Source of the DNA: an uncultured Gammaproteobacteria bacterium
GTDB taxonomy: Bacteria > Patescibacteriota > Patescibacteriia > VMEV01 > CAZAJQ01
DNA: 32,000 bases
Reading direction: 5' to 3'
Assembly (NCBI GenBank): GCA_964485795.1
Contig: CAZAJQ010000003.1
Location: forward strand, 876 to 32,875
The position numbers were made by a program, and so were the translations under genes. Position 1 is the stretch's first letter, and the number at the start of each line of letters is the position of its first letter. Below are positions 10,696 through 30,629 of this stretch, piece after piece. Below the pieces are notes generated by a model. It was not told where the DNA came from. It saw only the letters and a list, made by a program, of their open reading frames with translations, and made no database searches.

Positions 10696-10737
10696 CAGTG
10701 CTCAGTGCTCAGTTCTGACTGCTGAGAACTGAGTACT
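10696..10737. repeat. Six tandem heptamers (CAGTGCT CAGTGCT CAGTTCT GACTGCT GAGAACT GAGTACT) forming a hairpin; one of two copies of this element in the window
   Basis: The 7-nt periodicity is read directly from the sequence. GTGCTCAGTTCT pairs with AGAACTGAGTAC (12 bp, one mismatch). A 16-nt stretch, CTGAGAACTGAGTACT (10722-10737), is identical to 28956-28971. Confidence 0.7.
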
Positions 10738-10761
10738 TACTCCTTATCTTTCTATCTTCCT

Positions 10762-16682: not shown

Positions 16683-16830
16683 AAAAACATCATTTTTGAG
16701 AGAAAATTAGTATTCTTACTATATCGAAAAAAAATCATGCGCACAACCGATGGGAAAAAAGCGAATATTGCACGAAGCGAAAGCCTCATGATATATTTTG
16801 ATTACTTTTGAAAATTTTCCCACAATCATT

Positions 16831-17388
16831 ATGAATGAAAATAAAATCGGCGCATGGGTCGAGTTTTTTTCGGAATTTTTTAAAGTGGTGATTCTGTCGC
16901 TTGCCATCATCCTGCCGGTGAGATACTTTTTGATTCAGCCTTTTTATGTGAAGGGCGCTTCCATGGAGCCCAATTTTTTTGATCATGAATACCTTGTCAT
17001 CGATGAGATCAGCTATCGTTTTCGGGAAGCTCAGAGAGGGGACACCATCGTTTTTCGGTATCCTCGGGATCCTCATCAATTTTTCATCAAGCGCATCATC
17101 GGACTTCCGGGCGAGAAAGTGGACATTCGCGGCGGAAACGTCTATATTGACGAGGTTCTTTTGGACGAATCCGAATATTTGCCCAAAGGCACGGTAACGC
17201 ATATTGACGCGAGCGTATCGCTTTCGGATGATGAGTTCTTCGTTTTGGGAGACAATCGCGATTTTAGCCTCGATTCACGTCGTTTCGGACCCGTGAAAAA
17301 GGATCTTACGGTGGGGAAAACATGGATTCGCGGTTGGCCGTTCGGGCGTATTTCCGTGATATCAACCCCCGACTATGTGGCGGAATAA
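16831..17388 (+). CDS. lepB: Signal peptidase I
   Basis: S26 motifs are present: GASMEPNF (catalytic Ser), FIKRIIGLPGE (catalytic Lys region) and VLGDNRDFSLDSR. Start at ATG 16831; the track's TTG at 16798 adds 11 aa. Confidence 0.9.
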   Translation: MNENKIGAWVEFFSEFFKVVILSLAIILPVRYFLIQPFYVKGASMEPNFFDHEYLVIDEISYRFREAQRGDTIVFRYPRDPHQFFIKRIIGLPGEKVDIRGGNVYIDEVLLDESEYLPKGTVTHIDASVSLSDDEFFVLGDNRDFSLDSRRFGPVKKDLTVGKTWIRGWPFGRISVISTPDYVAE

Positions 17389-17469
17389 CCCGTGTATCGG
17401 TTTTTTTTCAAGGTTCAAACATTTTTGAAATGATATACATTTTATAACCCATCACATGGATTCACTTTT

Positions 17470-18774
17470 ATGACAGAATCTGCAACCAAGAAGATTCCCG
17501 AACCCAAGCTCGTCAAGGGCATGAAAGACATTGTGCCTGCCGATCGAGCCTATTGGGACGCAATGGTCTCGCAAGCGGAGCGATTGTCAGCTGATTTTGG
17601 TTTTGAACGCATTGATGTTCCGGTTCTCGAAGAGACATCGCTTTTTGTGCGCGGCATAGGGAAGCAAACTGAAGTGGTGGAAAAACAAATGTTCAGCTTC
17701 AAAGACTTGGGAAGCGCCAGTCTCAGTTTGCGTCCGGAGTTTACGGCCGGTATCGCCCGCGCCTATATCGAGCATGGCATGCTCAATATCCCCCAGCCCG
17801 TGAAGCTCTATACATGGGGTCCGCTTTTTCGTCGAGAAAAGCCGCAGGCCGGACGTTATCGCCAGTTTCATCAGTTTGACGTCGAAGTCTTGGGTGATGC
17901 GCAGCCCGTGGTGGATGCCGAAGTGATTCTTTTGGGATATCAATTTCTGCTGTCCTTGGGCATTGCTCCGATCGTGCATATCAACAGTATTGGATCCAAG
18001 GCCTGTCGAATGAAGTATAAGCAACTTCTCATCGACTATTATCGTCCCAAGAGGAAGCATCTTCCCGAAGAGTATAAAAAGACATTCACGAAAAATCCTT
18101 TGCGACTTCTTGACGCCAATGATGAAAAATTACGCGAGCTTCGTGTCGGAGCTCCGCAAATTGTGGATCACCTGGATGATGAAAGCAAACAACATCTCAT
18201 GAAAGTTTTGGAATTTCTCGATGAACTCGATATCCCCTACATGTTGGATCCGTATATCGTCCGAGGATTGGACTATTACAATCGCACGACATTCGAGTTT
18301 TTTGTGAAGGATGAGAGTCATGAAAAGGCGCAATCGGCTTTGGGTGGCGGCGGACGTTATGACGGCCTCTTGGAAACTTTGGGAGGGAGGCCGACTCCGG
18401 CGGTCGGTTTTGCCATCGGCATGGAACGAGTCATGCTGAAATTGCGAGAAATGAAAACGAGTTTGTCGGCTCCAAAGCATCCGCGGGTCTTTTTGGCGCA
18501 GCTGGGAGAGCAGTCAAAGAAAAAGGCCATAGCTCTGTTTCAGAAACTCCTCGTGGCCGGCATACCGGTGATGACCTGCTTTACCAAGGATAATCTCAAA
18601 ACGCAGCTGGAAATAGCCAATAAAAAAACGGTGGCGTATACGCTGATTCTCGGTCAAAAGGAGCTTATGGATGGCACCATCTTGGTGCGAGACATGGAGG
18701 GCGGCGTTCAAGAAACCGTCAATATGGAAAAAATCGTCCCGGAAATGAAAAAACGATTGAAAATAGATATCTGA
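17470..18774 (+). CDS. hisS: Histidyl-tRNA synthetase
   Basis: Motifs GMKDIVP, LRPEFTAGIARAY, FRREKPQAGRYRQFHQFDVEVLG, GGGGRYDGL and AVGFAIGMERV are present, followed by an anticodon-binding C-terminus. Confidence 0.95.
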   Translation: MTESATKKIPEPKLVKGMKDIVPADRAYWDAMVSQAERLSADFGFERIDVPVLEETSLFVRGIGKQTEVVEKQMFSFKDLGSASLSLRPEFTAGIARAYIEHGMLNIPQPVKLYTWGPLFRREKPQAGRYRQFHQFDVEVLGDAQPVVDAEVILLGYQFLLSLGIAPIVHINSIGSKACRMKYKQLLIDYYRPKRKHLPEEYKKTFTKNPLRLLDANDEKLRELRVGAPQIVDHLDDESKQHLMKVLEFLDELDIPYMLDPYIVRGLDYYNRTTFEFFVKDESHEKAQSALGGGGRYDGLLETLGGRPTPAVGFAIGMERVMLKLREMKTSLSAPKHPRVFLAQLGEQSKKKAIALFQKLLVAGIPVMTCFTKDNLKTQLEIANKKTVAYTLILGQKELMDGTILVRDMEGGVQETVNMEKIVPEMKKRLKIDI

Positions 18775-18784
18775 AATGCGTTTT

Positions 18785-18813
18785 TTGACAGTACGCAGCG
18801 GAAAATATATAGT
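18785..18813 (+). promoter_or_regulatory. Sigma70-like promoter TTGACA-17 nt-TATAGT upstream of rpsU
   Basis: Consensus -35 TTGACA lies at 18785-18790 and TATAGT at 18808-18813, with an exact 17-nt spacer. It is ~75 nt upstream of the rpsU start and is followed by a strong SD (GAGGAGG, 18873-18879). Confidence 0.5.
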
Positions 18814-18887
18814 AAATAATACGAAAATCAAAAGACAATTCAACGTATTTCTCATATTAACCATTAATTTTTGAGGAGGTGATATCT

Positions 18888-19118
18888 GTGAATCCTGTCC
18901 ATCGCAAGAAAAATGAATCTTTTGAAAGTTTTTTGAGAAGATTCAATAAAATTATCCTTGAAAGCGGAAGACTTATACAAGCTCGGAGAAACCGTTTCTT
19001 AAAGCAAAGGGTCAATAAGAACAAAGGCAAGAAGCTCGCTTTAAGACGCAAGCAAATATCCGAAAAAATGACGTATCTCGAAAAAGTCGGCAGAATGCCG
19101 GAAGATTTTTTTCGATGA
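18888..19118 (+). CDS. rpsU: 30S ribosomal protein S21
   Basis: Small basic protein with the S21-like core ESFESFLRRFNKIILESGRLIQARRNRFLKQ...RKQ. I prefer the GTG at 18888, 8 nt after the GAGGAGG SD, over the track's GTG at 18879, which overlaps the SD. Confidence 0.8.
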   Translation: MNPVHRKKNESFESFLRRFNKIILESGRLIQARRNRFLKQRVNKNKGKKLALRRKQISEKMTYLEKVGRMPEDFFR

Positions 19119-19187: not shown

Positions 19188-20852
19188 ATGAGACAAAGCA
19201 ATAAACTTCTGTTGATAGGTTGCCTGACGATCATGGCATCCATGATCGCGTTTTCTACGCCTTTCGAAGCATTCGGCCAAGGACTCGACACCGGTATCGC
19301 CCCGCTTTCGCAAACCGGTCTGGGAACCCAAGACATACGACTTACCGTTGCACGCGTGATTCGTATTCTTTTGGGTTTTCTTGGCGTTTTGGCGCTTGGC
19401 ATCGTGCTTTATGGAGGATTTACTTACATGACCGCTGCCGGCAATGCTGAAAAAGTGGAGAAAGCATTGAAAATTCTTCGCAACGCATCCGTCGGACTTC
19501 TCATCATTCTTTCTTCTTACGGCATTGTTTCCTTTGTAATCAATCGTCTCGAAGGCGGAGGCCGCGGTACAGCGGGTATCCCGATTTCCAGCGGTCCGGG
19601 CGGCGGAGGATTCGGAGGAGCATTGGGATCGTTTATCGTGGAGTCGCATTATCCCGTACGCAATGCCGTGAATATTCCGCGGAACACCAAAATCATGGTG
19701 ACGTTTCGTCATCCTATGCTGGTTGATTCGATCATCGATCAGAAAAACACTCCGGACACCATTGACGATACGTTGCGTCCCGAAGCTTTTCGTTTGCGAA
19801 AAACTTCGGATTCGAGCGCCAATGGACCGTTTATCGCCAATATGCGCGCGGCGGTAACCGATGATCTCAAAACGTTTGTTTTCACTCCCATGGATCTTTT
19901 GGGCAATGCAACGGCTCCGACAAATTATACGGCTGAATTGACCGGCAGTATCAAGCGAGCCAATGGCGACAGCGCTTTTGGCGGACTCGGGGGATACAGC
20001 TGGAGCTTTGAAGTGAGCACTTTTGTGGATAATACGCCGCCAAGAGTGGAAAGCGTGATTCCGGTCGCCTCCCAGAGCTATCCTCGGAACACGTTGATAC
20101 AGATCAATTTTTCCGAAAGCATGGATCCGACTACCGTATCCGGGAAAAATTCGCCCGGAGCTTTTCGATTTGATAAAATAACCGTGAAGCAAGGTGTCGG
20201 CGATGTGATCGGTACGTTTACGATCAGCAATCAATATAGGACCGTCGAATTCTTATCCTCGGACAAATGCGGGAAGAACAGCTGTGATGAGGATGTTTTT
20301 TGCTTGCCGGAAAACGCAACCATAGACGCTACCGTCAAAGCAGCATCTTTGACAAACGCCCCGGCTGCGAATTTTCCGTATGACGGAGCGGTGGATGCGG
20401 CCGGCAATTCCCTTGACGGCAATGCCAATCAAATCGCCGAAGGTCAGCCGCAAGACAATTATGCATGGTCGTTTCAGACGACGGGCGAAATAGACCTTGT
20501 CCCGCCTCGCATCCTGTCCACGTCTCCCGCAAGCGGTACCGGAGACGTATTGAGCGGACAAACCCTGTCGGCCACCTTTTCCAAGCTTTTATCGGCCACA
20601 TCGGTGAATACCCAAAGCGTGGCGCTCGACGGCGTGATATACTGGACGACGGTGAACAATGAAATCGCTCAGAATTCTTCGACGATTTTCATTGACCATG
20701 ATCCTTTTGCTCCCAATACCCCGTATTATCCGCAAATCACGTCACTCGTTCGCGACATTTACCAAAATTGCTACTTGCCCTGCGAAGGGCCGGGATGCAA
20801 GGCGGGGGAGAAGTGGAACGGGAAATTCCCCTCGTGCGGATATACTCCCTGA
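19188..20852 (+). CDS. Surface protein with an N-terminal VirB2/TrbC-like pilin hairpin module, a Gly-rich linker and ~3 SbsA/Big_5-like Ig domains
   Basis: A signal peptide is followed by two hydrophobic helices around a short charged loop (VIRILLGFLGVLALGIVLYGGFTYMTAAGNAEKVEKALKILRNASVGLLIILSSYGIVSFVINRL). The linker is GGGRGTAGIPISSGPGGGGFGG. Three segments begin like Big_5 domains (YPVRNAVNIPRNTKIMVTF; PPRVESVIPVASQSYPRNTLIQINFSESMDPTTV; PPRILSTSPASGTGDVLSGQTLSATFS). Confidence 0.8.
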   Translation: MRQSNKLLLIGCLTIMASMIAFSTPFEAFGQGLDTGIAPLSQTGLGTQDIRLTVARVIRILLGFLGVLALGIVLYGGFTYMTAAGNAEKVEKALKILRNASVGLLIILSSYGIVSFVINRLEGGGRGTAGIPISSGPGGGGFGGALGSFIVESHYPVRNAVNIPRNTKIMVTFRHPMLVDSIIDQKNTPDTIDDTLRPEAFRLRKTSDSSANGPFIANMRAAVTDDLKTFVFTPMDLLGNATAPTNYTAELTGSIKRANGDSAFGGLGGYSWSFEVSTFVDNTPPRVESVIPVASQSYPRNTLIQINFSESMDPTTVSGKNSPGAFRFDKITVKQGVGDVIGTFTISNQYRTVEFLSSDKCGKNSCDEDVFCLPENATIDATVKAASLTNAPAANFPYDGAVDAAGNSLDGNANQIAEGQPQDNYAWSFQTTGEIDLVPPRILSTSPASGTGDVLSGQTLSATFSKLLSATSVNTQSVALDGVIYWTTVNNEIAQNSSTIFIDHDPFAPNTPYYPQITSLVRDIYQNCYLPCEGPGCKAGEKWNGKFPSCGYTP

Positions 20853-20880
20853 TGATTTCATGTCAAAAAATTCATGATGC

Positions 20881-21246
20881 ATGGTTATGGTGAAACTTTT
20901 TTTCGCAAGTGTCATTGTTTTTTTGATACTTCCCTTGGGGATATGGGCGCAGCGCGTATCGGATACCAAGGTGATAGAAGGTCAAAATGTCTCTCTGTTT
21001 ACGACGCAGGAAAGTTTTTTGGCCGCCAATGAAGGAACCGTATTTCTCGTCATTCGCCTTTTGAGATTTTTCGCTGGGGTGCTTTTGGTTTTGAGCTTCT
21101 ACAGTTTCCTGAAATATTGTTATCATTGGATGGTGGCAAGCGGAGCCGTGGAAGCCGTGTATGAAGTGTATGACGGATGGGTGTATTCGCTCGTGATTCT
21201 CATCATTTCGATAGCGATATTTGTGGTGACCGGATTTTTTCTTTAA
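20881..21246 (+). CDS. Stand-alone small VirB2/TrbC-like pilin-type membrane protein (121 aa)
   Basis: A signal peptide (LFFASVIVFLILPLGIWAQ) is followed by two long hydrophobic helices separated by a short loop (FLVIRLLRFFAGVLLVLSFYSFL...VASGAVEAVYEVYDGW...VYSLVILIISIAIFVVTGFFL). It is tightly packed between the two fusion genes, with gaps of 28 and 9 nt. Confidence 0.65.
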   Translation: MVMVKLFFASVIVFLILPLGIWAQRVSDTKVIEGQNVSLFTTQESFLAANEGTVFLVIRLLRFFAGVLLVLSFYSFLKYCYHWMVASGAVEAVYEVYDGWVYSLVILIISIAIFVVTGFFL

Positions 21247-21255
21247 GGGATTCGC

Positions 21256-24200
21256 ATGTCCAAAAAAAACACATATACCATTTTTCTGACATTGGCATTG
21301 GCTTTTTTTGCGGGCGCTTTTGCTTTTTCCGCAGGCGCGCAGACGGATTTCACGGGACTTTCGACGCTCGGGCAAAGCGGGCTTTCGGCGCAGGATCCGA
21401 GGGTGACGATCGCCAATATCATACGCATCGCATTGGGTTTTTTGGGTATCATCGCCGTGGTTATCATCCTCTACGCGGGTTTTTTGTATTTGACTTCCGG
21501 AGGCAGTGAAGAAAAGGTGAGTACGGCAAAAAATTTATTGCGCAACGGCATTATCGGATTGGTGATCGTGCTTTCGGCGTTTGGAATCGCTTCATTTGTT
21601 ATTTCCAGACTTTCATCGGCCACGAATACACCGGGAGCCGCTTCGCTCCTGCCTTCGGGAACGGGTGGCGGCGGGGGAGGCGTCGGAGGAGGTGCGGTTC
21701 TTTCGGGCGGGCAATTTGCGGTTGCGGGAGTGAGTCCCGTCGGACAAACTTCGATACGCAATCTCACGGTGAAGGTGACGTTTAGCCGACCCGTTGATAC
21801 CGCGTCCTTGCGAGACAATATCGTGATATCCAAAACATCGGATGGAAGCGCAGTTTCCGGGAATTTTGTCTATGGCCAAACCAAGGTTGAGTTTATTCCC
21901 GGCTCGTTTTGTCCCACACCTGATGAAACGAAGCGTTGTTTTGACGCAAATACCGAGTATGGCGTTGAAGTGAAAAGCGGCTCATCGGGCGTGAAGAGCG
22001 CTACCGGCGATCTTCTTTCCTGCGGACTGGCCGGGGGTTTGTGCAAAACTTTTTTTATCAGCGGCGACGAGATCGATCGAAGCGGCCCAAGCGTGTCGTT
22101 TGTTGCGCCGCAGAACGGCTCATCGGTGGCCGTCAATGATATGGTGCTTTTGCAAGCGCATGCCCGCGATGAAGGCGGTGTCTCTCATGTGGAGTTTTAT
22201 CTTGATGCGGCAGCCGATGAAAGCACGCTTTTGGGTTCCTCGTCTCCTCTCTATTCGACGAGTCCTTCGGAATTTTTGGCATCCATTTCTTGGGATACCA
22301 ATAATATTGCCGCCGGAAAAAATCATACCTTGATTGCCAAAGCCTATGATCTTGATTCCAATGCCTCTCAAACGTCCATTGAAGTGAATTTCAGAGCGGC
22401 GCATTGTTTTGACGGGCAAAAAAACACCGACGAAACCGATATTGATTGCGGCGGCGTCGAATGCGGAAAATGCAATGGCGCGTCGTGCGTGCAGGACAAG
22501 GAATGCAAGAGCAATGCCTGCATCAACGGATTTTGCAGCCGCTTGCCGGTCATCACAAACGTGAACCCCTACAACGGAGCGCCAAACAATCTCATCACCA
22601 TCGATGGAACCAATTTTTCCGAACAAGTGGGACAGGTGACGTTTCTTGGCGAGGTTTCGGATACTTCCGATGATGTGCTCGGTTTGGCTCCCTTGTGCGG
22701 AAACGTGTGGAGCGATTCGGAAATCGTCATCAAGGTACCTTCGCAGGCGCGGTCGGGTCCGATTCAGGTGCGCACGCAATCGGGTTTGCTGGATCATACG
22801 GACAATGATATCGGCATACGGGTGAGTTTTGATATCAACAGTGAAATTCGTCCGGGATTATGTCGTCTGACTCCCGACAGTGGGGAAGTCGGCGGCCTTA
22901 TCATGGTTGCCGGAGAAAATCTTGGAAACCAAGCGCAATCGCTTCTGATCGGGAGCATGAAGGCCTCCGGCATAGGAACATGGACGGAAAATGCGATCAC
23001 GGATGCCGTGATTCCTTCGATATCGGCCGGGAAAGCGCCCGTATTCGTGGAAGTGAACGGGCGGGTTTCAAACAGCGTTTCGCTCGATGTTTCCGAATCG
23101 CGTACGGTTCCAAAGCTGGAGTTTTCCGATCCGATTTTTGGTCCCGTTTCTCAAATGATCACGTTGTACGGGAAAAATTTCGGGCTCACCGCCGGTCAGG
23201 TGCGATTCATCGCGCCGGATGGAAGCGAGCTGATCGCCGACACGTCTTTTCCTCTCCTTTGCGAGAAAAATTTTTGGCATGATGATCTTATCACCGTCAA
23301 AGTTCCGAACACCGAGATCGGAAAATACAAGATCGTCGTGGTCAATGGCCAAAACAAAATCAGCAATTCCATTGATTTTACCGTCAATAATGCCGCAAAA
23401 ACTCCGGGTATCTGCGCGCTTCTGCCGGACAACGGACCGGCCGGCATTGCCGTCACAATCGCCGGTGAAGGATTTGGCGATATTGCAAACCTCGTGCGGT
23501 TTTTCCCAAACTTGGAAAATGGCACCATCACGCAATGGACCGATACGGAGATAAACGTGCAAACGCCTCCGAATGTGGGAAGCGGACCCGTGAAAGTGAT
23601 TTCAAAAAACGGCACCTTGAGCAATGGCGTTACCTTCAAAGTCGGGAAATGTTCCACGGCAAGCTGTCAGGAAGGATATCAATGCTGCGGAAGCGGAGCT
23701 TGTCAGATTGCGGGAAGCTGCGCCATCACCGAGGCGGCCTGTCGCTACACATGGGGTGTGAGTACGGGAAATCTTTCGCTCTTGGATGAGTCAAAATTCT
23801 TGCGGGTGCTTGAAGATGCCTCCTGTACCGTAGTTCCGCAAAGTCCTTCGCCATATAAGGATTCCGAAAACGCTTGCATCAATGCGGATATCGTTGTAAG
23901 GATGAACAAAAATCTTTTGGATCAATCTTTGGATTCCGGCAATGTGAGATTGCAAAAATGCGGTGCAGCGGCGATTTTTGACGCGTCGGATTGCGATGAG
24001 ACGCCTCTCGTATGCGCCATGGAAATCATCAATCACGATACTTCCGAAGAAGGATTTCGCTTGCGCGCAATCGCGCCCTTGGAAGCGAATACTTGGTATC
24101 AGGTGGTTTTGAAAAAATCGTCCGTCATCAATGGCGTGAATCAATTGGACGGTTTTGTGTCCGATGAAGGATACAGCTTCAAAAATGACTATGTTTGGCA

Positions 24201-26391
24201 TTTCAAAACCGACGCATCGGGCGCGGCATGCGATTTCAATAAAGTCCTGGTGATGCCTTCAGACGCCACTTTGCACGTGAAGGAACAAACGCAAGACTAT
24301 ATTGCCGGAGGATTCGCGGCCAATTGCAACCTTGTTTCTCCGGGTACATGCAATGCGAGCTATGCTTGGGCGTGGTCGTCTTCGGATATGTCAAAAGCTA
24401 CGGTTCTGTCGCAGACCGATAAAGCGACGGCAACGGCAAAAGCCGAAACGTTTCCCGATCAGCCCGTCGTCATTTCCGCTACGGAAACCAATCAAAATAT
24501 CAGCGGGCAAGGAAAATTGTTCATCAATTTTACGGATCCGGAAGTGGAAGCCTTTTGGCCGAATTGTTCGCTCGCCTGCATAAATGCCGAAATCGGAGCG
24601 CGATTCAGCATCGCCATGAATCCGGAGACATTGACTTCACAAAATATCCGGCTGTATGCATGCGTCGATCAAAACTGCCTTGCAAATCTGGAGCCGATGG
24701 ATATTGAAAATATCGTGTATGACGACAATCGTCGGGCATTGAGTTTCCTGCCGTCATTGGCTGGATCGTTGCAGCCATCGCATTGGTATCGTGCAGTGAT
24801 CAACGGGGGCGTTTCCGGAGTGAAAAGCGTGAGCAACGGAAAACTTGTCGGGTTGAATTTTCCGCAAGTGAATCCGACCGGATATTCATGGATTTTCGGC
24901 ACGAAGGGCGATGCCAATCTGTGTCAGATCGCATCCGTATCCGTTAGCCCCGAGGAAAAGGACATGTATCTTATCGGGTTGCGGGAAAAATATTACACGT
25001 CGGCGTTCGGATCCCCTGACAGCTGCAACCCGCAAGGACAGCGATTGAACGCGTTTTCTTATGATTGGTCGTGGATGTCGAGCAATGAGGGAGTTGCGAC
25101 CGTTACGAGCGAAGATTTGATATTCTTGGACGGCAAGGAAGATCCTTTGCAATTGGCGCAATCGGTCGGGGTGGGCGCCACACCCGTGCAATCCGGCGGA
25201 GATGTGGTGGGTACGACGACGATCAATGCCAATACGCTCGGAAAGAGCGGACAGGGGACGCTTCGCGTTCATTGCGGATTTCAAAGTGATGCTTCCTGCC
25301 CTGCTCCGGCCACACCCGACACCTATGGCGTCGGTGCGGATACGTGTTGCTATGCTCGACCGGCCGTGACCGAAGTGATTCCCGCGGGCACCAATGTTTG
25401 CCGCAATGCGGTGATGAAGCTGCGATTCAATGGCGATATGGACTATGACAGCGTGCTCGCCAATGTGAAATTGCAGAAGAATTTCGGCGACAATGCTTGT
25501 CCGCAAGTGAGCGATGCAGGATTTTTTGAAAGACTATGGAATTACTTCAGGGGCATGTTTGGAAAAGAAACACAGGCGCAAAGTATTGAAAATTGGTGTG
25601 ACATCGGGCAAACGGTTTTGGCTAGCAAGCAGGGAAACGATTATTTTGCCGAAATATTGATCGATGAAGTCCTGGATTCCAATGCCGTGTATCGAATCCA
25701 TGTCGTGGGCGATCAAAATATTTTTGACAATGTTCAAACCGGCGTGAAAAACGGCATGGGTGTGGTGATGAGAGGCGATTTCACTTCGCTGTTCACCACC
25801 GGTGCTGAAATTTGCGACATCGAAAATGTCACGGTGCGCGTTTTGCCTCAGGACAAGGTGACGCTCGAGGATCTCTTGTCCTGCGCAAGAAACGATTGCG
25901 AGGGCGATCAAAGCGACACCATCCCGAGCAACCAGCACCGCTATATCGCCGAGGCCTATGACAAAAACAATATTCCGGTTCGATCGAGTTTTGAGTGGAG
26001 TCGTTCCGGCGCGAATGTGACGAACCTCCTGAAAACCGATGAAAGGGGCGCATGCGTGAGCGGGGAGAGCGCGAGTCAAACCGGTCAAGCCGTTTGCGTT
26101 TCCGCTTCTCCGACAAACGGCGAAGACAAGATCACGGTAAGGGCGCAATCGCTTTTCAATGCCAGTTCCATGTCTCGGACGTTGAAAACGAAAGTGTTTC
26201 TCTGCGAAAATCCATGGCCGAGTTTGCATGACTATCCGTACACCGATCCGGAGACGAATATGAGTTTCTTTTTTTGCCGAGATGCGGGTCAGCCGGGATT
26301 TGACGATGATTTGCCGGCCTTGAATTTTCCGGTCAAAAACGAAGGCATTGATCCGGGAGTATTTCGAGAATTTTTCTTTTTCGTTCAGTGA
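21256..26391 (+). CDS. Giant (1711 aa) surface protein with an N-terminal pilin-like hairpin module, a poly-Gly linker, Ig-like (Big_5-type) domains, a Cys-rich knot, four IPT/TIG domains and further Ig-like domains
   Basis: The N-terminus is paralogous to that of 19188 (IIRIALGFLGIIAVVIILYAGFLYLTSGGSEEKVSTAKNLLRNGIIGLVIVLSAFGIASFVISRL). The linker is SGTGGGGGGVGGG. The Cys-rich segment is CFDGQKNTDETDIDCGGVECGKCNGASCVQDKECKSNACINGFC. Four IPT-like repeats are present (PVITNVNPYNGAPNNLITIDGTNF...; LCRLTPDSGEVGGLIMVAGENLG...; FSDPIFGPVSQMITLYGKNFG...; ICALLPDNGPAGIAVTIAGEGFG...). An SD-like AAGGGA lies 6 nt upstream of the ATG. Confidence 0.85.
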   Translation: MSKKNTYTIFLTLALAFFAGAFAFSAGAQTDFTGLSTLGQSGLSAQDPRVTIANIIRIALGFLGIIAVVIILYAGFLYLTSGGSEEKVSTAKNLLRNGIIGLVIVLSAFGIASFVISRLSSATNTPGAASLLPSGTGGGGGGVGGGAVLSGGQFAVAGVSPVGQTSIRNLTVKVTFSRPVDTASLRDNIVISKTSDGSAVSGNFVYGQTKVEFIPGSFCPTPDETKRCFDANTEYGVEVKSGSSGVKSATGDLLSCGLAGGLCKTFFISGDEIDRSGPSVSFVAPQNGSSVAVNDMVLLQAHARDEGGVSHVEFYLDAAADESTLLGSSSPLYSTSPSEFLASISWDTNNIAAGKNHTLIAKAYDLDSNASQTSIEVNFRAAHCFDGQKNTDETDIDCGGVECGKCNGASCVQDKECKSNACINGFCSRLPVITNVNPYNGAPNNLITIDGTNFSEQVGQVTFLGEVSDTSDDVLGLAPLCGNVWSDSEIVIKVPSQARSGPIQVRTQSGLLDHTDNDIGIRVSFDINSEIRPGLCRLTPDSGEVGGLIMVAGENLGNQAQSLLIGSMKASGIGTWTENAITDAVIPSISAGKAPVFVEVNGRVSNSVSLDVSESRTVPKLEFSDPIFGPVSQMITLYGKNFGLTAGQVRFIAPDGSELIADTSFPLLCEKNFWHDDLITVKVPNTEIGKYKIVVVNGQNKISNSIDFTVNNAAKTPGICALLPDNGPAGIAVTIAGEGFGDIANLVRFFPNLENGTITQWTDTEINVQTPPNVGSGPVKVISKNGTLSNGVTFKVGKCSTASCQEGYQCCGSGACQIAGSCAITEAACRYTWGVSTGNLSLLDESKFLRVLEDASCTVVPQSPSPYKDSENACINADIVVRMNKNLLDQSLDSGNVRLQKCGAAAIFDASDCDETPLVCAMEIINHDTSEEGFRLRAIAPLEANTWYQVVLKKSSVINGVNQLDGFVSDEGYSFKNDYVWHFKTDASGAACDFNKVLVMPSDATLHVKEQTQDYIAGGFAANCNLVSPGTCNASYAWAWSSSDMSKATVLSQTDKATATAKAETFPDQPVVISATETNQNISGQGKLFINFTDPEVEAFWPNCSLACINAEIGARFSIAMNPETLTSQNIRLYACVDQNCLANLEPMDIENIVYDDNRRALSFLPSLAGSLQPSHWYRAVINGGVSGVKSVSNGKLVGLNFPQVNPTGYSWIFGTKGDANLCQIASVSVSPEEKDMYLIGLREKYYTSAFGSPDSCNPQGQRLNAFSYDWSWMSSNEGVATVTSEDLIFLDGKEDPLQLAQSVGVGATPVQSGGDVVGTTTINANTLGKSGQGTLRVHCGFQSDASCPAPATPDTYGVGADTCCYARPAVTEVIPAGTNVCRNAVMKLRFNGDMDYDSVLANVKLQKNFGDNACPQVSDAGFFERLWNYFRGMFGKETQAQSIENWCDIGQTVLASKQGNDYFAEILIDEVLDSNAVYRIHVVGDQNIFDNVQTGVKNGMGVVMRGDFTSLFTTGAEICDIENVTVRVLPQDKVTLEDLLSCARNDCEGDQSDTIPSNQHRYIAEAYDKNNIPVRSSFEWSRSGANVTNLLKTDERGACVSGESASQTGQAVCVSASPTNGEDKITVRAQSLFNASSMSRTLKTKVFLCENPWPSLHDYPYTDPETNMSFFFCRDAGQPGFDDDLPALNFPVKNEGIDPGVFREFFFFVQ

Positions 26392-26428: not shown

Positions 26429-28933
26429 GTGAGTATGATGCGCGGAATACAAAAATATAGTGCGATTCAAAATTTTTTTTTGCGTTCCCTGATGATGGGT
26501 TGCATGCTTTTCATGGGCTGCATTTTCGCGACTCGAGTTTTTGCGGCGGACGTGATCGGCATACGAGTGATGGACAATCCGGATCGGCTTTCGCCGTTTT
26601 CTTGGTACAATCGTTTCGTTCCCAATCCCGGGGAGCCCGAAGTGCTGTCCGTTGACGGATATCTGGCCTTACGATCCGGAAGAAGCGTGTATGTGTTTGG
26701 CTCGAATCTGGAAAACAATGAACTCAAAGCTCGTGTGTATATCGTCTCTTTTTCGCAAAACGCGAGCGCAAATACCACGAAGATTTTGGATCAGATATTG
26801 CCGCAATTTCAGCTCAATACGAATGTGACGGATGATATTCAAAAAATACAGATACGCATGGATGTGAAAAGAGCCGGAGATGTGAATGATGTGAAGACGT
26901 TGCTTGAGCGCTACAAAAACATCAACGGTACCTATCCGGCTCTTGCCACCGGGAGCTATATAGACGGTCTTACCTTCAGCGCATGGCCCTCATGGCAGTC
27001 CGCTTTGGGAAATGTTTTGCAATCCGCGGTGCCGCAGGATCCGGTGAATAGCTTCGGACAATGTCCGGGGAATTTTGATCAAAACACCTGCTGGAATGAA
27101 AATCAGCAGCAATTCCAATGTCCGGCCGGATCGCATGTTTATGCCTATCAGGTCAGCGAAAACGGGTCTTCATATCGCGTATTGACGAATTTTGACAATT
27201 CATACTGGAAAACCGGTGAATTTGACGCCTTGCTGGCGGATAAATGTTTCAATTTTTCCACGGAATTCGCCAATGATCGAGATGGCGACGGCGTGATTGA
27301 TAATCGCGACAATTGCCCGGATCATGCGAATCCGGATCAAAGCGACCGCGATGGCGACGGACGCGGCGACGTCTGTGAAATATGCTCCGATGACCCGACC
27401 AATGATCGCGACCGCGACGGCATTTGCGGCAATATCGATAATTGTCCCCTCGTGTACAATCCTTTCCAAGAAGATGAAGATCAGAAATCGGGAATCTCAA
27501 TACTGGGTGATGGTGTCGGTGACGCTTGCGATGTGCAGATATGCGGCAATGGAATCAAGGAAGGATATGAAGCGTGCGACGGAGAAAAGGGGATCGGGCC
27601 GCATGAACGATGCGCTTATGGCTGTGTCATCACGCCCTTGACCTATTGCGGCGACGGTTCGGTGCAAAGTCCCAATACCGAAAATAATTTTTCCGAACAA
27701 TGCGATACCTTTGGCGGGAACGGTACGGGTGGAACGCAATATTCCTGTTCATCGCAATGCACATGGACGGGAGGATTCTGCGGAGACGGATTCCGCAATG
27801 GCCCGGAATTCTGCGACGGCGGAGACACACCGCAAAACAGCAGCTGTTTGAACGATTGCAGCGGCTGGGTATGCCGACAGGGGTATTTCCCCTATGAGCG
27901 GGGTTGCTCTCCGGATGGAGATGGAGACAGCGTCCCCGATGCGGTGGATAATTGCACGGATGTCAGCAATGCCGATCAGGTCAATTCCGACCAAGATCAG
28001 TACGGCGATGCTTGTGATTGGTGTCCTTTGGATGCCAGAAACGACGAAGATCTCGATGGCTACTGCGTCGGAAGCCATAATCCGACGTTTTCGGCCTTTC
28101 GTCGTGGCAATGACAATTGTCCGCTCGTTCCAAATCCCGATCAAAGGGATATTGATGCGGATGGGATCGGCGATGCATGCGATCCGGCCACGTGTCGCAA
28201 CGGCATCAAAGAAGGCAATGAAGTCTGCGATATCGGAAAAGGAACCGGGCCCAATGATCGTTGGGGATGTAAATCCGATTGCAGCGGCTGGACCGACGGG
28301 ATCGGGTACTGCGGTGACGGGACTGTTGACGTCGGTTACGAAGGGTGTGAAGCCAATGGAAGCGGAAACGGGCCAAACAATCAATACCTTTGCAAGAGTT
28401 GTCAGTGGGAAGGAGGATACTGCGGCGATTTGATTGTAGATCCGAAAAACGGAGAGCAATGCGAGCAACCGGGAACCGGAAAAAGCGTTACGGATCAGCA
28501 TTTCTGCATCGGCTGTCGTTGGCAGGGCGGATATTGCGGAGACGGTGTTATCAATGGCTCCGAACAATGCGACGCCGGAACGCAAAACGGCATACGTTGC
28601 ACTCCCAATGGCGAGCAAGAATGCAGCTTCTGCGGAATTTCATGCAAACGTGCGATCATGACACCGATCTATGTGCTCAAAGTCGGAAACGCCGGAGACC
28701 CGTGGCGCGGAGGCAAACCGGAATTGTGCGACCTGTATAACGGCGGATCCATCGGCACCGAAAAACCCGTCGGTTCGGTGGAAACGCAGCACACCAACGG
28801 TGAAATTCAATATTATTTCAATCCGCAAGGATGTTTTGCGGACAAATCATGGACCTGCGCCGCCTACTTTGACGGCTGCTCAAGCTACAACACCCTCTTC
28901 TGGGAATTCACCGGCCAATATTTGCAGCAATAG
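26429..28933 (+). CDS. Secreted, very Cys-rich 834-aa protein with eukaryote-like TSP3 repeats and CGDG-type (Myxococcus-style) cysteine-rich repeats, arranged as a duplicated supermodule
   Basis: The signal peptide ends FATRVFA-AD. TSP3 motifs are DNCPDHANPDQSDRDGDGRGDVCE, DNCPLVYNPFQ, DNCTDVSNADQVNSDQDQYGDACD and DNCPLVPNPDQRDIDADGIGDACD. Cys repeats are CGNGIKEGYEACDGEKG, YCGDGSVQ..EQCD, FCGDGFRNGPEFCDGGD, CRNGIKEGNEVCDIGKG, YCGDGTVDVGYEGCE, YCGDLIVDPKNGEQCE and YCGDGVINGSEQCDAG. The start is uncertain (GTG 26429, ATG 26435 or ATG 26438). Confidence 0.85.
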   Translation: MSMMRGIQKYSAIQNFFLRSLMMGCMLFMGCIFATRVFAADVIGIRVMDNPDRLSPFSWYNRFVPNPGEPEVLSVDGYLALRSGRSVYVFGSNLENNELKARVYIVSFSQNASANTTKILDQILPQFQLNTNVTDDIQKIQIRMDVKRAGDVNDVKTLLERYKNINGTYPALATGSYIDGLTFSAWPSWQSALGNVLQSAVPQDPVNSFGQCPGNFDQNTCWNENQQQFQCPAGSHVYAYQVSENGSSYRVLTNFDNSYWKTGEFDALLADKCFNFSTEFANDRDGDGVIDNRDNCPDHANPDQSDRDGDGRGDVCEICSDDPTNDRDRDGICGNIDNCPLVYNPFQEDEDQKSGISILGDGVGDACDVQICGNGIKEGYEACDGEKGIGPHERCAYGCVITPLTYCGDGSVQSPNTENNFSEQCDTFGGNGTGGTQYSCSSQCTWTGGFCGDGFRNGPEFCDGGDTPQNSSCLNDCSGWVCRQGYFPYERGCSPDGDGDSVPDAVDNCTDVSNADQVNSDQDQYGDACDWCPLDARNDEDLDGYCVGSHNPTFSAFRRGNDNCPLVPNPDQRDIDADGIGDACDPATCRNGIKEGNEVCDIGKGTGPNDRWGCKSDCSGWTDGIGYCGDGTVDVGYEGCEANGSGNGPNNQYLCKSCQWEGGYCGDLIVDPKNGEQCEQPGTGKSVTDQHFCIGCRWQGGYCGDGVINGSEQCDAGTQNGIRCTPNGEQECSFCGISCKRAIMTPIYVLKVGNAGDPWRGGKPELCDLYNGGSIGTEKPVGSVETQHTNGEIQYYFNPQGCFADKSWTCAAYFDGCSSYNTLFWEFTGQYLQQ

Positions 28934-29054: not shown

Positions 29055-29630
29055 ATGTTCGATGACCAACAAAAAGAATCCGTCGAGGTTTCCGGAACGC
29101 CTTCCGATAACCGTGGCATGGGTCAGCCCGTTTCAAAGACAGACATCGCGGATATTTTCGCGGATACCGAAAGCGATGTTTTGACTTCAAAGGCTGGCGG
29201 GAAGGAAAATGAATATCGCCTTTCCGCTCCCAAGGATCGCTCATGGATCCTGAGAGCGTTTTTGTTTTTCGTGGTGCTGGGAATTCTCGGAACCGGGGCG
29301 TATTTCGCTTGGAAATGGTGGAAAAGTCTTTCGATACCGACGACACCGTCACAAGTTCAGAATTCAAATGCTCCCACGCAAAGTGCGCCTTTTTTGGACG
29401 CGGATTTGGATGGTCTCTCTGACGATGAAGAGGCGCGTCTTGGGACGAATTCTAAAATGGTTGATACGGATTCGGATGGACTCAGCGATTATGAAGAGGT
29501 CAAGGTTTGGAAAACCGATCCGCTCGATGCGGATACCGACGGAGACACATTTCTTGATGGTCAAGAGGTGAAAAACGGATATGATCCCAAAGGACCGGGT
29601 AAAATCACGGATGTAAAAAAAGTTTTGTAA
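29055..29630 (+). CDS. Single-pass membrane-anchored protein with an extracellular TSP3 repeat block (191 aa)
   Basis: An N-terminal cytoplasmic segment is followed by a TM helix (ILRAFLFFVVLGILGTGAYFAWKWW) and then DADLDGLSDDEE, DTDSDGLSDYEE, DADTDGDTFLDGQE and the closing motif VKNGYDPKGPGKI. The same closing motif occurs in ORF 65-2158 (IKNGYDPLGKGKL). Confidence 0.75.
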   Translation: MFDDQQKESVEVSGTPSDNRGMGQPVSKTDIADIFADTESDVLTSKAGGKENEYRLSAPKDRSWILRAFLFFVVLGILGTGAYFAWKWWKSLSIPTTPSQVQNSNAPTQSAPFLDADLDGLSDDEEARLGTNSKMVDTDSDGLSDYEEVKVWKTDPLDADTDGDTFLDGQEVKNGYDPKGPGKITDVKKVL

Positions 29631-29654
29631 AATATCATCATTGATTCATGCACT

Positions 29655-30629
29655 ATGGAGGACATCATCACTCCCGTCGGAGAAAAAAAAAGCGATGCGC
29701 CCATTCATGGGATGCCCTATGAATTTCAAAAAGAAGCCCCGTCTTCAGGCGGTGGAAATGCTTTCCTCGTGCTTGGTGCGGTTTCCATGGTGGTGGCCAT
29801 TGGGGTGGTGATTGTCATGATCATGACGAATCGATCAGTGGCACCGACGATACCGGATTCAAAGCTTGCCATTCTCGGTGAGCAGAAAACCGCCACATTG
29901 ACACCTCAAACGGCGGTGCCAAATGCCAATGCTTTGAATATCAATCGTCCGGCGGAGAATATCAATGTCAAAGAACCCGAAAATATCAATGTTCCGACCA
30001 CGCCTCCGGTGGCGCCTCCGCTTTTCGGAAGCATTATCGCCAAGGGCAGGGACACAGACAAGGACATGCTCTCGGATGTTGAGGAAGTTTTGTATCGGAC
30101 GTTGAGCAATATTCCCGATTCGGACGGAGACGGGCATACCGATGGCGTGGAGCTCATGAATCTGTATAATCCGGCAGGTCAAGCTCCGGCTGATCTCGCG
30201 ACGTCGGGGTTGGTTCGTGTTTTTGATCAGGTGGGATACGCATACTCATTTTTGTACCCCATCGCATGGGAGCTTGAGCGGGAAGAAGAAAAACAGATCG
30301 TTCGAATGGTGTCATTGACCGGCGAATTTTTTCAAATCGCGGCCTATGAAAATCCAGATAATCTTCCCATCTTGGAGTGGTATTTGAAACAATCTCCCGG
30401 AGTGAAACCCGAGCAGGTGGAAAACGTTACCACCAAAAACGGGTACAAGGGCATCCGCAGCATTGACGGTTTGACGCTTTTCATCGTCAAACCGCTCAAA
30501 GAAGAAATAGCCGCACCTTCGGAAAAAAGAATCATTTACGCCATCACCTACAATCCGGTTGCCGCCACATCGCTTGAGTATTCATCAACCTTCCAGATGT
30601 TTTTGAACAGTTTCGAGATTGTGGAGTGA
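29655..30629 (+). CDS. Single-pass membrane-anchored protein with a short TSP3 block and an uncharacterised ~150-aa C-terminal globular domain (324 aa)
   Basis: The TM helix is AFLVLGAVSMVVAIGVVIVMIM. A Pro/Asn-rich spacer follows, then DTDKDMLSDVEE and DSDGDGHTDGVE. The C-terminal domain begins VRVFDQVGYAYSFLYPIAWELE, a pattern I recall as common in CPR exported proteins of unknown function. Confidence 0.75.
   Translation: MEDIITPVGEKKSDAPIHGMPYEFQKEAPSSGGGNAFLVLGAVSMVVAIGVVIVMIMTNRSVAPTIPDSKLAILGEQKTATLTPQTAVPNANALNINRPAENINVKEPENINVPTTPPVAPPLFGSIIAKGRDTDKDMLSDVEEVLYRTLSNIPDSDGDGHTDGVELMNLYNPAGQAPADLATSGLVRVFDQVGYAYSFLYPIAWELEREEEKQIVRMVSLTGEFFQIAAYENPDNLPILEWYLKQSPGVKPEQVENVTTKNGYKGIRSIDGLTLFIVKPLKEEIAAPSEKRIIYAITYNPVAATSLEYSSTFQMFLNSFEIVE

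Follow-up and report, generated by a model that had tools for sequence, protein, structure and literature searches.

The locus described here raises the question of why a pilin-like module should stand at the N-terminus of very large, apparently extracellular proteins, and whether such proteins are parts of a pilus or use the module for another purpose. A preliminary description of this stretch of DNA from an ultra-small patescibacterium, hereafter the window (32,000 nucleotides), had proposed three consecutive VirB2/TrbC-like pilin modules, two of them in the large products of genes A and C and one in the small product of gene B between them, with no T4SS machinery nearby. The three open reading frames were found as described, all on the plus strand (Table 1), and the remainder of the window contains housekeeping genes and no T4SS gene.

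Table 1. Features of the pilin-module cassette and its flanks, in window coordinates
Feature	Position	Strand	Size or residues	Basis or remark
lepB (signal peptidase I), hisS, rpsU	16798-19118	+		conserved upstream context
Promoter-like site	18785-18813
Gene A, modular pilin-like surface protein	19188-20852	+	554 aa	ORF call
A pilin module	19335-19553	+	helix 50-81, loop 82-86, helix 87-122	AF2, pLDDT ~90
A Gly-rich flexible linker	19554-19622	+	aa 123-145	sequence; pLDDT <50 in AF2 model
A ectodomain, three beta-sandwich (Big_5) domains and Cys-containing C-terminal tail	19623-20849	+		Pfam, AF2
Gene B, orphan with signal peptide and two hydrophobic helices	20881-21246	+	121 aa	hydropathy scan and direct reading
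Gene C, modular pilin-like giant surface protein	21256-26391	+	1711 aa	ORF call
C pilin module	21397-21624	+	helix 48-79, loop 80-84, helix 85-123	AF2 hairpin, pLDDT 88-97
C linker with Gly run	21625-21705	+	aa 124-150	contains GTGGGGGGVGGG
C ectodomain, Ig-like array, then family-less C-terminal region	21706-26388	+	C-terminal region ~300 aa	Pfam, domain map
C Big_5 domains			aa 155-252, 864-975, 1108-1190, about 1369-1416	domain map
C Big_7 domain, then Cys-rich spacer			aa 278-359
C TIG domains			aa 431-509, about 538-608, 721-795	Pfam counts four stretches, one without position
Secreted Cys-rich thrombospondin-type-3 repeat protein	26429-28933	+	834 aa	Pfam TSP_3, own signal peptide
Two single-pass membrane proteins with bacterial TSP3 repeats	29055-30629	+	191 aa, 324 aa	followed by ybeY

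Pilin modules and Ig-like arrays of genes A and C

The N-terminal parts of A and C, about 125 aa in each, are paralogous, as had been proposed, and align without gaps (48 of 90 residues identical, 53%; E 5e-32), and their DNA is only about 54% identical, in agreement with the high divergence noted before. Hydropathy and AF2 modelling agree that each begins with a signal-like hydrophobic helix, followed by two long hydrophobic helices with a 5-residue loop between them; loop and start of helix 2 read TAAGNAEKVEKALK in A and TSGGSEEKVSTAK in C. A hydropathy scan revealed no hydrophobic segment in either protein beyond this N-terminal region, and neither translation shows an LPXTG-type motif at its C-terminus. 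Both proteins match PF18895 above the Pfam cut-off of 26.6 bits, A with 29.2 bits (aa 56-117) and C with 36.2 bits. The isolated C module reaches 40.5 bits with PF18895 and 39.7 bits with NF045849 (cut-off 40), and appears in the best 150 of the 66,515 family representatives. When the 319 ORFs of the window were searched with an HMM of 120 stand-alone homologues, the scores were 111 bits for A and 141 bits for C, and no further module was identified in the window besides these two and the weakly scoring B. Compared with stand-alone proteins named 'pilin' by NCBI, the A and C modules gave E values down to 2e-25. In a family alignment of 60 members (58 stand-alone relatives and the two modules), all 60 match both PF18895 and the Mbov_0395 pilin-like family, 33 match PF04956 TrbC/VirB2 (best E 4e-9) and four match the VirB2 major-pilin model. 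The TrbC/VirB2 profile found no match in A itself and an insignificant one in C (E 0.67, far under the cut-off). Both classes retain the invariant Gly, Tyr, Met and Ala positions, which, together with the HMM scores, speaks against a decay of the modules into generic anchors. On these sequence comparisons, the A and C modules are members of the PF18895 T4SS_pilin family.

Both modules stand N-terminal to large Ig/IPT arrays, as Pfam and the domain map confirm. The linker starts exactly where stand-alone pilins end, 5-12 aa past helix 2, and carries the Gly-rich tract that had been noted (GGGRGTAGIPISSGPGGGGFGG in A and GTGGGGGGVGGG in C); for A, a Gly-rich linker is kept in the consensus of 38 orthologues. 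Beyond the module, A carries 430 residues and C carries 1,590. Pfam and AF2 together give A a layout of signal peptide, pilin hairpin, Gly linker and three Big_5 Ig-like domains (Big_5 88.5 bits over three stretches; model pLDDT 83, pTM 0.71), and in C the matches beyond the module are four to TIG, four to Big_5 and one to Big_7. The C-terminal motif C.NPWP...F.CRD.G..G...DLPA of C is found again in another protein of 2675 aa (P0372).

Gene B and the conservation of the cassette

The third proposed module, that of gene B, is a different case. It shares the topology of signal, helix, loop and helix, with a signal-like helix at aa 1-23, a hydrophobic helix at aa 51-78 and a terminal hydrophobic stretch at aa 100-121. 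Searches of Pfam and NCBIfam with B gave no match, and in a collection of 5.8 billion sequences (90% clusters) B matched itself alone. With the HMM of stand-alone homologues it scored 12.4 bits (E 0.002 over the window ORFs), colinear from end to end, a score that was reached in 2 of 2000 segment-wise shuffles; hhalign gave E 0.027 and a probability of 1.8%. The position of B is taken by a recognisable pilin-module gene in eight other loci, and in the closest relative (L090) by a 136-aa gene with the topology of B. We consider B a probable, weakly supported and strongly diverged pilin paralogue. The suggestion that this small protein is the major subunit is unlikely, because B is an orphan that is missing from two loci (L005 and L091) and is replaced in a third (L008) by an unrelated gene of 299 aa.

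The arrangement of A, B and C is not an assembly artefact, because B, 100% identical, recurs beside the same flanking genes in four independent assemblies (SRR12113383, SRR12113384, SRR12113385 and SRR12113424); one of these has all three genes complete (554, 121 and 1711 aa) and two more have the complete 554-aa A, the remaining copies being cut by contig ends. We found relatives of A in 369 species-representative genomes, of which the identified ones belong to the class ABY1 (Uhr-, Falkow-, Buchanan- and Komeilibacteria), and all 120 orthologues among the matches listed have E<1e-106, nearly all with PF13205 together with PF18895. In 62 of the 65 loci with downstream DNA, a second pilin-module gene lies directly 3' of the A-like gene, at a median gap of 7 nt; it is usually giant (complete ones 1,584-3,336 aa), and all but one of 156 ORFs (155) have the module at the N-terminus. 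The pair of A and a giant is therefore a widespread syntenic cassette, not peculiar to the source genome, and the preliminary description of the duplication as old and maintained agrees with its presence in these informative species-level loci. Sequence identity between A and C modules is 60% within a genome and 47% between genomes (n=50, p=2.5e-14), and identical residues share identical codons in 53% of cases compared with a baseline of 44%, from which gene conversion is judged to account for part of the within-genome similarity. The source window shows neither signal (within-genome rank 10 of 50; codons 36% compared with 34%).

The synteny of lepB, hisS and rpsU upstream is kept in 59-68 of 83 loci surveyed. 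These are housekeeping genes outside the proposed machine, and LepB is an ordinary signal peptidase I (TIGR02227 135 bits; TraF 35 bits against a cut-off of 100). Downstream, the counterpart of the 834-aa TSP3 protein in other genomes is the C-terminal part of the giant, and in many loci BLAST finds the best match to it in the giant itself. The 191-aa protein is present in 26 and the 324-aa protein in 22 of the 83 loci, always downstream of the cassette; the TSP3 repeats of these neighbours are similar to those of cell-cohesion proteins at sub-threshold scores. Regarding the T4SS, seven of the cassette genomes appear in PMC12102498 Table S1 and six of these encode VirB4 elsewhere, so that dependence on a T4SS is possible. 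Stand-alone pilin arrays in two loci (L088 and L089) have no VirB4 within 10 kb, and in published figures 1135 of 1948 assemblies have pilins close to virB4. A missing T4SS near such pilins is thus ordinary. The single plasmid homologue, a Mbov_0395 family member on a Pontibacillus megaplasmid, lies 4 kb from a VirB4-like ATPase.

Anchor, pilus subunit or pro-pilin

The reading that we favour, with about even confidence, is that A and C are fibrillar surface or adhesin proteins anchored by a VirB2-type (PF18895) hairpin as their sole membrane element. The proteins would be exported by Sec and lose the N-terminal signal peptide to signal peptidase I, and the two long helices would insert as a hairpin with the Lys/Arg-containing loop in the cytoplasm and both ends outside, an orientation suggested by the positive-inside rule and VirB2 biology. 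Helix 2 leads through the flexible Gly-rich linker into an Ig-like stalk, three domains long in A and about a dozen in C, with a family-less distal region; because the linker joins the hairpin to the arrays, these would project from the cell. Since the hairpins keep pilin packing residues and tend to remain similar within a genome, they probably associate with one another, with small proteins like B and with stand-alone pilins, to form the base of a hetero-oligomeric attachment structure. Conservation of the pair across loci makes A and C candidate attachment fibres, and with the downstream Ca-binding TSP3 proteins they would constitute a conserved envelope and host-contact cassette of ABY1 Patescibacteria whose genes lie away from those of the T4SS.

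A passive anchor, however, would not require conserved pilin motifs, and their conservation fits incorporation into a pilus equally well. A and C could then be modular minor pilins, whose hairpins are extracted from the membrane by VirB4 machinery encoded at another site and co-polymerise, either sparsely or at the tip, with stand-alone PF18895 pilins, so that the Ig arrays decorate the filament and serve as adhesins; the tip or decorating role proposed earlier would belong here. This is possible, but in our judgement less probable than anchoring. In the conjugative pili whose structures are solved, the loop between the helices faces the lumen and the joined termini are at the outside, which would leave a C-terminal extension pointing outward. 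The modules are as near to the family profile as stand-alone pilins, with the packing residues unchanged, and the frequent presence of VirB4 in cassette genomes, the essential role of pilin arrays in a Saccharibacterium, the lack of a separate adhesin detected in the phylum and the 'modular pilins' of type IV pili, which show the same design (PMC8179133), all point in this direction. Against it, the cassette occupies a fixed locus among housekeeping genes, while the T4SS loci of ABY1 are found near comF/recG/radA; all pilin-type matches of GW2011_GWE2_39_37 are away from VirB4, none being near it; and a T4SS pilus is so far unseen in any Patescibacterium. Moreover, appendages of 430 to >3,000 aa on a subunit of ~75 aa are without precedent and would have to cross the cell wall, and the known VirB2, TrbC and TrhA trim or cyclise their C-terminus instead of carrying an extension there.

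Such trimming is a known maturation step in the pilin superfamily; TrbC of RP4 and TrhA, for instance, lose C-terminal residues. It would also allow A and C to be pro-pilins, in which a giant C-terminal propeptide is cleaved within the Gly linker to give a small pilin and an Ig-array protein, the module being mainly a carrier for export and assembly and the array being released or separately retained. The start of the linker at the point where stand-alone pilins end, and its modelled disorder, agree with such a cut, but a conserved, flexible Gly tract would suit a spacer and a cleavage site equally, a dedicated TraF-like protease was not found, the neighbouring S26 peptidase being the ordinary signal peptidase I, and the Sec signal already at the N-terminus means that the ectodomain needs no carrier. 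We regard this as improbable. Still less credible is that the N-terminal segments are no more than a signal peptide and generic transmembrane helices with a pilin-like composition, in which case the three-gene arrangement would be unrelated to pilins. Foldseek with the hairpin model gave nothing specific, any helical hairpin being indistinguishable, a PDB sequence search found no solved pilin, and the direct TrbC match of C is insignificant; for B alone this view is viable. For A and C it is contradicted by the curated-threshold PF18895 matches, the E values against NCBI 'pilin' proteins, the family members that match the TrbC/VirB2 and VirB2 major-pilin models, and the invariant non-hydrophobic motif positions.

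Relation to known pilins and surface proteins

The closest known systems are the VirB2-like pilin arrays of Patescibacteria (Wang et al. 2023, PMC10633639; Quinonero-Coronel et al. 2025, PMC12102498), whose members belong to the same PF18895 family as the modules of A and C, stand in tandem, at times broken by a non-pilin gene, have divergent paralogues and commonly lie distant from virB4. However, these pilins are small and stand-alone (100-185 aa in our matches), whereas A and C add long extracellular parts to the module, and the A/C pair is found at the fixed lepB-hisS-rpsU locus and not in a T4SS cluster. In the papers examined we found no description of fusions of a pilin module to Ig arrays, and the conserved pair of pilin-anchored Ig-array proteins is what appears to be new. 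Among the curated NCBIfam models, the strongest match is to the Mbov_0395 family of pilin-like conjugal transfer proteins (NF045849), known from ICEs and plasmids of monoderms, with 34-39.7 bits across 64-66 of the 80 profile positions and thus just below the 40-bit cut-off; the proteins of this family are small and carried on mobile elements. With VirB2, TrbC, TraA and TrhA, the modules share a long signal peptide, a helix-loop-helix with a basic loop and, as predicted, both termini at the outer side of the membrane, along with the sequence similarity seen in part of the aligned family. Mature conjugative pilins, however, are of ~7 kDa, trimmed or cyclised at the C-terminus and assembled by an adjacent T4SS, whereas A and C carry hundreds to thousands of additional residues at this end and are only putatively assembled into a pilus. 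PilB and PilC of Streptococcus sanguinis (PMC8179133) have the same design of a polymerisation module with a C-terminal adhesive module, but they belong to an unrelated filament superfamily with a class III signal peptide, a single N-terminal helix and processing by PilD, in place of the Sec-type signal and hairpin of A and C, and the comparison is by analogy only. The A ectodomain finds its best structural matches by Foldseek among the Ig arrays of the S-layer proteins SbsC and Sap, titin and cadherins, with single domains resembling CopC, at TM-scores so low that the likeness is generic. Fibrillar adhesins and S-layer proteins of the SbsC, Sap and SiiE type likewise carry a tandem Ig-like surface stalk, which they anchor by SLH, LPXTG, T1SS retention or similar means, whereas in A and C the predicted anchor is an N-terminal pilin hairpin.

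Architecture and family of the A and C modules

The three consecutive genes A, B and C encode two large proteins, A and C, each with a pilin module followed by Ig-like arrays, and between them the small protein B (see the table of features). A and C are paralogous over their N-terminal ~125 residues (48/90 identical, gap-free, E 5e-32), and the DNA of the two modules shares just ~54% identity. AlphaFold2 models, with which hydropathy agrees, place helices at residues 4-22, 50-81 and 87-122 of A and 4-26, 48-79 and 85-123 of C. In both proteins a signal-like helix leads through ~25 poorly ordered residues into a hairpin and then into a disordered Gly-rich linker; the hairpin loop is five residues long, and the Lys/Glu-rich sequence runs on into helix 2. 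This is the topology of the Pfam family PF18895 (T4SS_pilin), namely a signal peptide and two hydrophobic helices joined by a short loop. Alignment, hydropathy and modelling bear out the paralogy, topology and Gly-rich tracts seen in the preliminary description. An assembly or gene-calling artefact is ruled out by four independent assemblies and many orthologues: gene B is present at 100% identity and with the same flanking genes in all four, one of which carries A, B and C complete; the others end at contig ends.

The ectodomain of A consists of three Big_5 domains by Pfam, modelled with high confidence as beta-sandwiches (overall pLDDT 83, pTM 0.71, AlphaFold2), and its Foldseek matches are generic Ig arrays, with the S-layer proteins SbsC and Sap first, then titin and cadherins. 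In the hydropathy scan neither A nor C shows a hydrophobic segment past its N-terminal ~125 residues, and their translations have no visible C-terminal motif of the LPXTG type, so the hairpin is the only candidate membrane-binding element. With its basic loop in the cytoplasm, both hairpin ends would face outwards, so the Ig arrays would be extracellular whether or not the signal peptide is cleaved.

Features of the cassette and of the genes downstream
Feature	Position	Strand	Length	Remarks
Gene A	19188-20852	+	554 aa	
Gene B	20881-21246	+	121 aa	starts 28 nt after A
Gene C	21256-26391	+	1711 aa	starts 9 nt after B
C, Big_5	aa 155-252			
C, Big_7	aa 278-359			
C, Cys-rich spacer				between Big_7 and the first TIG in listed order
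C, TIG/IPT	aa 431-509, about 538-608, 721-795			Pfam counts four TIG stretches, one not placed
C, further Big_5-like	aa 864-975, 1108-1190, about 1369-1416			
C, C-terminal region			~300 aa	no family
Secreted Cys-rich TSP3-repeat protein	26429-28933		834 aa	downstream of C
Two single-pass TSP3 membrane proteins	29055-30629			downstream; ybeY also downstream

Profile searches place the two modules in a pilin family. Against PF18895, A scores 29.2 bits and C 36.2 bits, both above the Pfam gathering score of 26.6, and the isolated C module reaches 40.5 bits. Among the matches listed, the closest relatives of the module are Patescibacterial stand-alone proteins of 100-185 aa (E down to 2e-25), several of which carry the NCBI name 'pilin'; they stop 5-12 aa past helix 2, exactly where the Gly-rich linker of A and C begins. 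PF18895 proteins are typically small and stand alone; B, at 121 aa, is compatible with them in size, and A and C depart from this pattern by running on for 430 and 1,590 aa, respectively. In an alignment of 60 family members (58 stand-alone relatives plus the A and C modules), PF18895 and NF045849 (Mbov_0395 pilin-like conjugal transfer protein) were each matched by 60/60 members, PF04956 (TrbC/VirB2) by 33/60 with a best E of 4.3e-9, and the VirB2 major-pilin model NF010431 by 4/60. For NF045849, with a cut-off of 40 bits, A (34.6), C (34.0) and the isolated C module (39.7) all fall just under. For PF04956, the Pfam scan gave no match to A, and C reached E 0.67 and 10.6 bits, below the cut-off of 27.9. 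As judged from these profiles, the A and C modules can be assigned as true members of the Patescibacterial VirB2-like pilin family, with a transitive link to classical VirB2/TrbC. The T4SS-pilin identity first proposed for A and C therefore holds through PF18895 matches above the curated cut-off; the TrbC/VirB2 profile itself recognizes many relatives of the modules rather than A or C.

An exhaustive profile search returned 66,515 cluster representatives at E<=1e-3, with the C module within the best 150. In the C-module homologue search the best 120 matches were all small pilins and C itself was absent, so this list is no gauge of how frequent fusions are. The sole homologue in the plasmid collection, a weak match, is a Pontibacillus megaplasmid gene of the NF045849 family located 4 kb upstream of a VirB4-like ATPase. 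No solved pilin was found when the PDB sequences were searched with a profile of the aligned modules, and Foldseek with the isolated hairpin model returned nothing from the PDB below E 1, only non-specific helical hairpins, the Aeropyrum conjugation pilus 8dfu ranking 21 at E 4.4. The Foldseek result is uninformative and no evidence against homology, because a helical hairpin matches nothing specifically.

A conserved cassette and its middle gene

The A/C pairing is a conserved syntenic cassette, and this is the main new result of our analysis. A search with full-length A yielded 353 clusters, the best 120 of which all have E<1e-106 and lengths of 525-921 aa, nearly all combine PF13205 with PF18895, and belong to Falkow-, Buchanan- and Magasanikbacteria and unclassified Patescibacteria; where named by NCBI, the orthologues are labelled 'Ig-like domain-containing protein' or 'hypothetical protein'. 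Scanning one genome per species revealed A relatives in 369 genomes. We surveyed the best 79 of these loci, 65 of which extend 600 nt or more beyond the end of the A-like gene. A second ORF starting with a pilin module follows at 62/65 loci, at a median distance of 7 nt; it is at least 1,100 aa long in 49/62 and ends at a contig end in 10 more, and the complete second ORFs have a median length of 2,400 aa (range 1,584-3,336 aa). The pilin module is N-terminal in 155/156 ORFs. These counts support the earlier suggestion that the duplicated fusion has been maintained.

The neighbourhood is conserved as well. In a synteny set of 83 related loci (the 79 surveyed plus four others), the genes upstream match those of the window, with rpsU at 68/83, hisS at 63/83 and lepB at 59/83 loci, and TSP3 membrane proteins and ybeY lie downstream of the cassette. 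The window's 834-aa TSP3 gene corresponds in many genomes to the C-terminal part of the giant ORF, for instance in the 2,900-3,300-aa giants of loci L005, L008, L024, L030, L038 and others, which points to a giant gene that has been split or fused during evolution. C and the TSP3 gene together come to 2,545 aa, roughly the equivalent of one giant. At L007 / L042 (Falkowbacteria MFD04716, 565-kb contig), two A-like paralogues of 836 and 862 aa precede the giant gene, the second with a Laminin_G_3 domain and with rpsU and yqeY between the two, an arrangement which shows that genes of the cassette have been duplicated locally and have swapped domains. The records of many MAGs with the cassette bear the titles 'uncultured Gammaproteobacteria', 'Candidatus Methylomirabilis' or 'Chlamydiae' (L011-L013, L016, L020, L022, L024, L025, L028, L029, L041, L048 and others); these records appear to be taxonomically mislabelled because their gene content and synteny are Patescibacterial.

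In the window itself, the cassette is surrounded by housekeeping genes, with parA/parB, relA/spoT, thrS, pth, der, an LCP-family transferase, lepB, hisS and rpsU upstream. The S26 peptidase gene lepB was considered as a TraF-type pilin-maturation protease and rejected, as it encodes ordinary signal peptidase I. At 18785-18813, upstream of rpsU, is the region's best promoter-like site (TTGACA-17-TATAGT, 11/12). There is no convincing terminator between rpsU and gene A, so rpsU, A, B and C may share a transcript. Another large protein, of 697 aa at 65-2158, carries a bacterial TSP3 repeat, and in all TSP3-type Ca-binding repeats occur in at least four secreted or membrane proteins of the 32-kb window. 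Three tRNA genes (Met, Met, Leu) lie at 5412-5875 on the minus strand, and a 114-aa ORF without family match on the plus strand (5597-5941) is almost certainly spurious because it runs opposite them. A fourth tRNA gene (Arg) lies at 10611-10685, within a stretch of low G+C (9000-11000; 0.38-0.40 vs about 0.47 elsewhere) that also holds, just upstream of tRNA-Arg and thrS, two family-less minus-strand ORFs at 9261-9590 and 9784-10386, the latter with a lipoprotein-like N-terminus.

Two modules that had evolved independently since an old duplication would be expected to show equal A-C identity within and between genomes. However, A-C pairs of one genome share 60% identity and pairs across genomes 47% (n=50, Wilcoxon p=2.5e-14), the C of the same genome is the best match of A in 16/50 cases, and the middle pilins follow the same trend (about 0.50 vs 0.37, n=6). 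The module regions of L009-L087 also share synonymous codons in excess (53% vs 44% baseline, p=8e-12). This excess rejects pure co-adaptation as the cause of the within-genome likeness and indicates that the likeness is at least partly due to episodic gene conversion, or concerted evolution, between adjacent paralogues. The window's own A and C show neither signal (rank 10 of 50; codons 36% vs 34%), in keeping with the high DNA divergence originally noted for this pair.

Gene B is harder to place. Its product has a signal-like helix (1-23), a second helix (51-78) and a terminal hydrophobic stretch (100-121), so the A/C-like topology ascribed to it is present, with a loop that is acidic, not basic. 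B has no Pfam or NCBIfam match and no relative but itself in a collection of 5.8 billion sequences (90% clusters). An HMM built on 120 stand-alone pilins matches B at 12.4 bits (E 0.002 among the window's 319 ORFs), colinear from end to end, and the next-best ORF of the window has E 0.26. Only 2/2000 shuffles of residues within topological segments equalled this score, so the similarity goes beyond topology and composition alone. The B slot holds a recognisable pilin-module gene in eight loci (L016, L028, L041, L053, L054, L060, L067, L077), and in the closest relative, L090, a 136-aa gene with the same topology and 20% identity to B. Against the pilin reading, hhalign of B with pilins gave E 0.027 with a probability of 1.8%, and B went undetected by an HMM built on eight recognisable middle-position pilins; its BLASTP matches to stand-alone pilins, at E about 1e-7 when composition was left uncorrected, we discounted as hydrophobic bias. 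On balance B is probably a fast-evolving, degenerate pilin paralogue, with chance resemblance a minor alternative. The earlier view of B as a pilin module is weakly supported, by shuffling and position and not by curated families. The slot is empty in L005 and L091 and holds an unrelated 299-aa gene in L008. B is dispensable for the cassette, and the role of major subunit once proposed for it is therefore unlikely.

Proposed roles as membrane anchor or pilus subunit

No T4SS family was found among the window proteins, as the preliminary description had claimed, or within 10 kb on either side in the syntenic loci examined. Seven cassette genomes are included in Table S1 of PMC12102498, all of GTDB class ABY1, and 6/7 are VirB4-positive; the seventh, in which VirB4 was not scored positive, is a 619-kb partial bin. 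In one of these genomes VirB4 is gene 288, and the pilin-type matches, genes 863 and 929, are marked as lying away from VirB4. The T4SS loci of ABY1 lie near comF/recG/radA (PMC12102498). The cassette is thus separate from the T4SS genes, but the genomes that carry it usually possess a T4SS. Patescibacterial pilins lie near virB4 in 1135/1948 assemblies, so proximity is not universal, and the stand-alone pilin arrays of close relatives are also far from VirB4; the absence of a nearby T4SS is therefore not unusual.

From the observed architecture, module family and conserved synteny we infer how A and C may work. Both proteins would be exported by Sec and then cleaved by signal peptidase, their hairpins would insert in the membrane with both ends outside and associate through pilin-type helix packing, and their Ig stalks would project from the cell. 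We prefer, at roughly even probability, to read A and C as fibrillar surface proteins or adhesins that a pilin-type hairpin holds in the cytoplasmic membrane; together with the TSP3 proteins they would make up a conserved complex of the envelope and of host contact. In the main rival reading, the hairpins become part of a T4SS pilus, where A and C would serve as modular pilins, either sparse or at the tip. A C-terminal extension would then point outwards, since solved conjugative pili have their termini on the outside and the loop towards the lumen, and the well-kept pilin motifs fit this rival at least as well as they fit an anchor; overall we regard it as possible, on the unlikely side. A reading of the long C-terminal part as a cleaved 'propeptide' is very improbable. 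A more specific proposal appears doubtful: joined with stand-alone pilins in a T4SS-derived pilus of a monoderm Patescibacterium, A and C would represent the first case of 'modular conjugative-type pilins'. If this were true, VirB2-type pilins could carry very large cargo, A and C would also provide the adhesins for host binding that were missed in surveys of the phylum, and the attachment fibre of ABY1 episymbionts would be the product of the conserved A-(B)-C cassette.

'Poly-pilins' with 2 to 17 tandem PF18895 hairpins per polypeptide are numerous in the family, for example the homologues P0243 (552 aa), P0270 (1147 aa) and P0263 (1775 aa). Internal signal peptides are lacking in P0243 and P0270, the two sequences read, and P0270 carries a non-pilin domain at its C-terminus as well. 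Such concatenated hairpins are hard to reconcile with the subunit-by-subunit assembly of a pilus, a hint that the module may also act as a membrane-embedded bundle.

Relation to known systems

A large part of bacterial diversity is Patescibacterial, and the majority of Patescibacteria are believed to live on host cells, attached to them. The T4SS and the VirB2-like pilin arrays are essential in the sole Patescibacterial species tested genetically, and for the Patescibacterial T4SS no pilus has been seen and no adhesin assigned; adhesins such as PrgB were not detected (PMC12102498). A conserved pair of genes that joins a pilin module covalently to long Ig-like stalks offers concrete candidates for contact structures. 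The pair also provides a natural tag for the destination of the module, membrane or filament, and recognition of the cassette improves annotation, as the present NCBI labels of A orthologues hide the pilin module.

VirB2-like pilin arrays in Patescibacteria have been published (PMC10633639, PMC12102498, PMC12857230), including tandem arrays broken by non-pilin genes, so the pilin family and its scattering over the genome are already known. Neither fusions of pilin modules to large extracellular arrays nor such a syntenic cassette were mentioned in the literature searched. The A/C cassette is not categorically new, as all its component families are known. It goes beyond a routine family member because A and C are not the small stand-alone subunits typical of the family and because the arrangement is conserved over hundreds of species. 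The nearest conceptual parallel to A and C is found in the modular type IV pilins (PMC8179133), which belong to an unrelated filament system and offer an analogy only. Type IV pilins have a class III signal peptide with a prepilin motif and a single N-terminal alpha-helix, whereas A and C lack these, have no Pfam match to N_methyl or type IV pilin families, and begin, as read from their sequences, with a Sec-type signal with AxA-like sites followed by a two-helix hairpin. If the modules polymerise, the idea of a 'modular pilin' would extend from type IV to conjugation-type pili.
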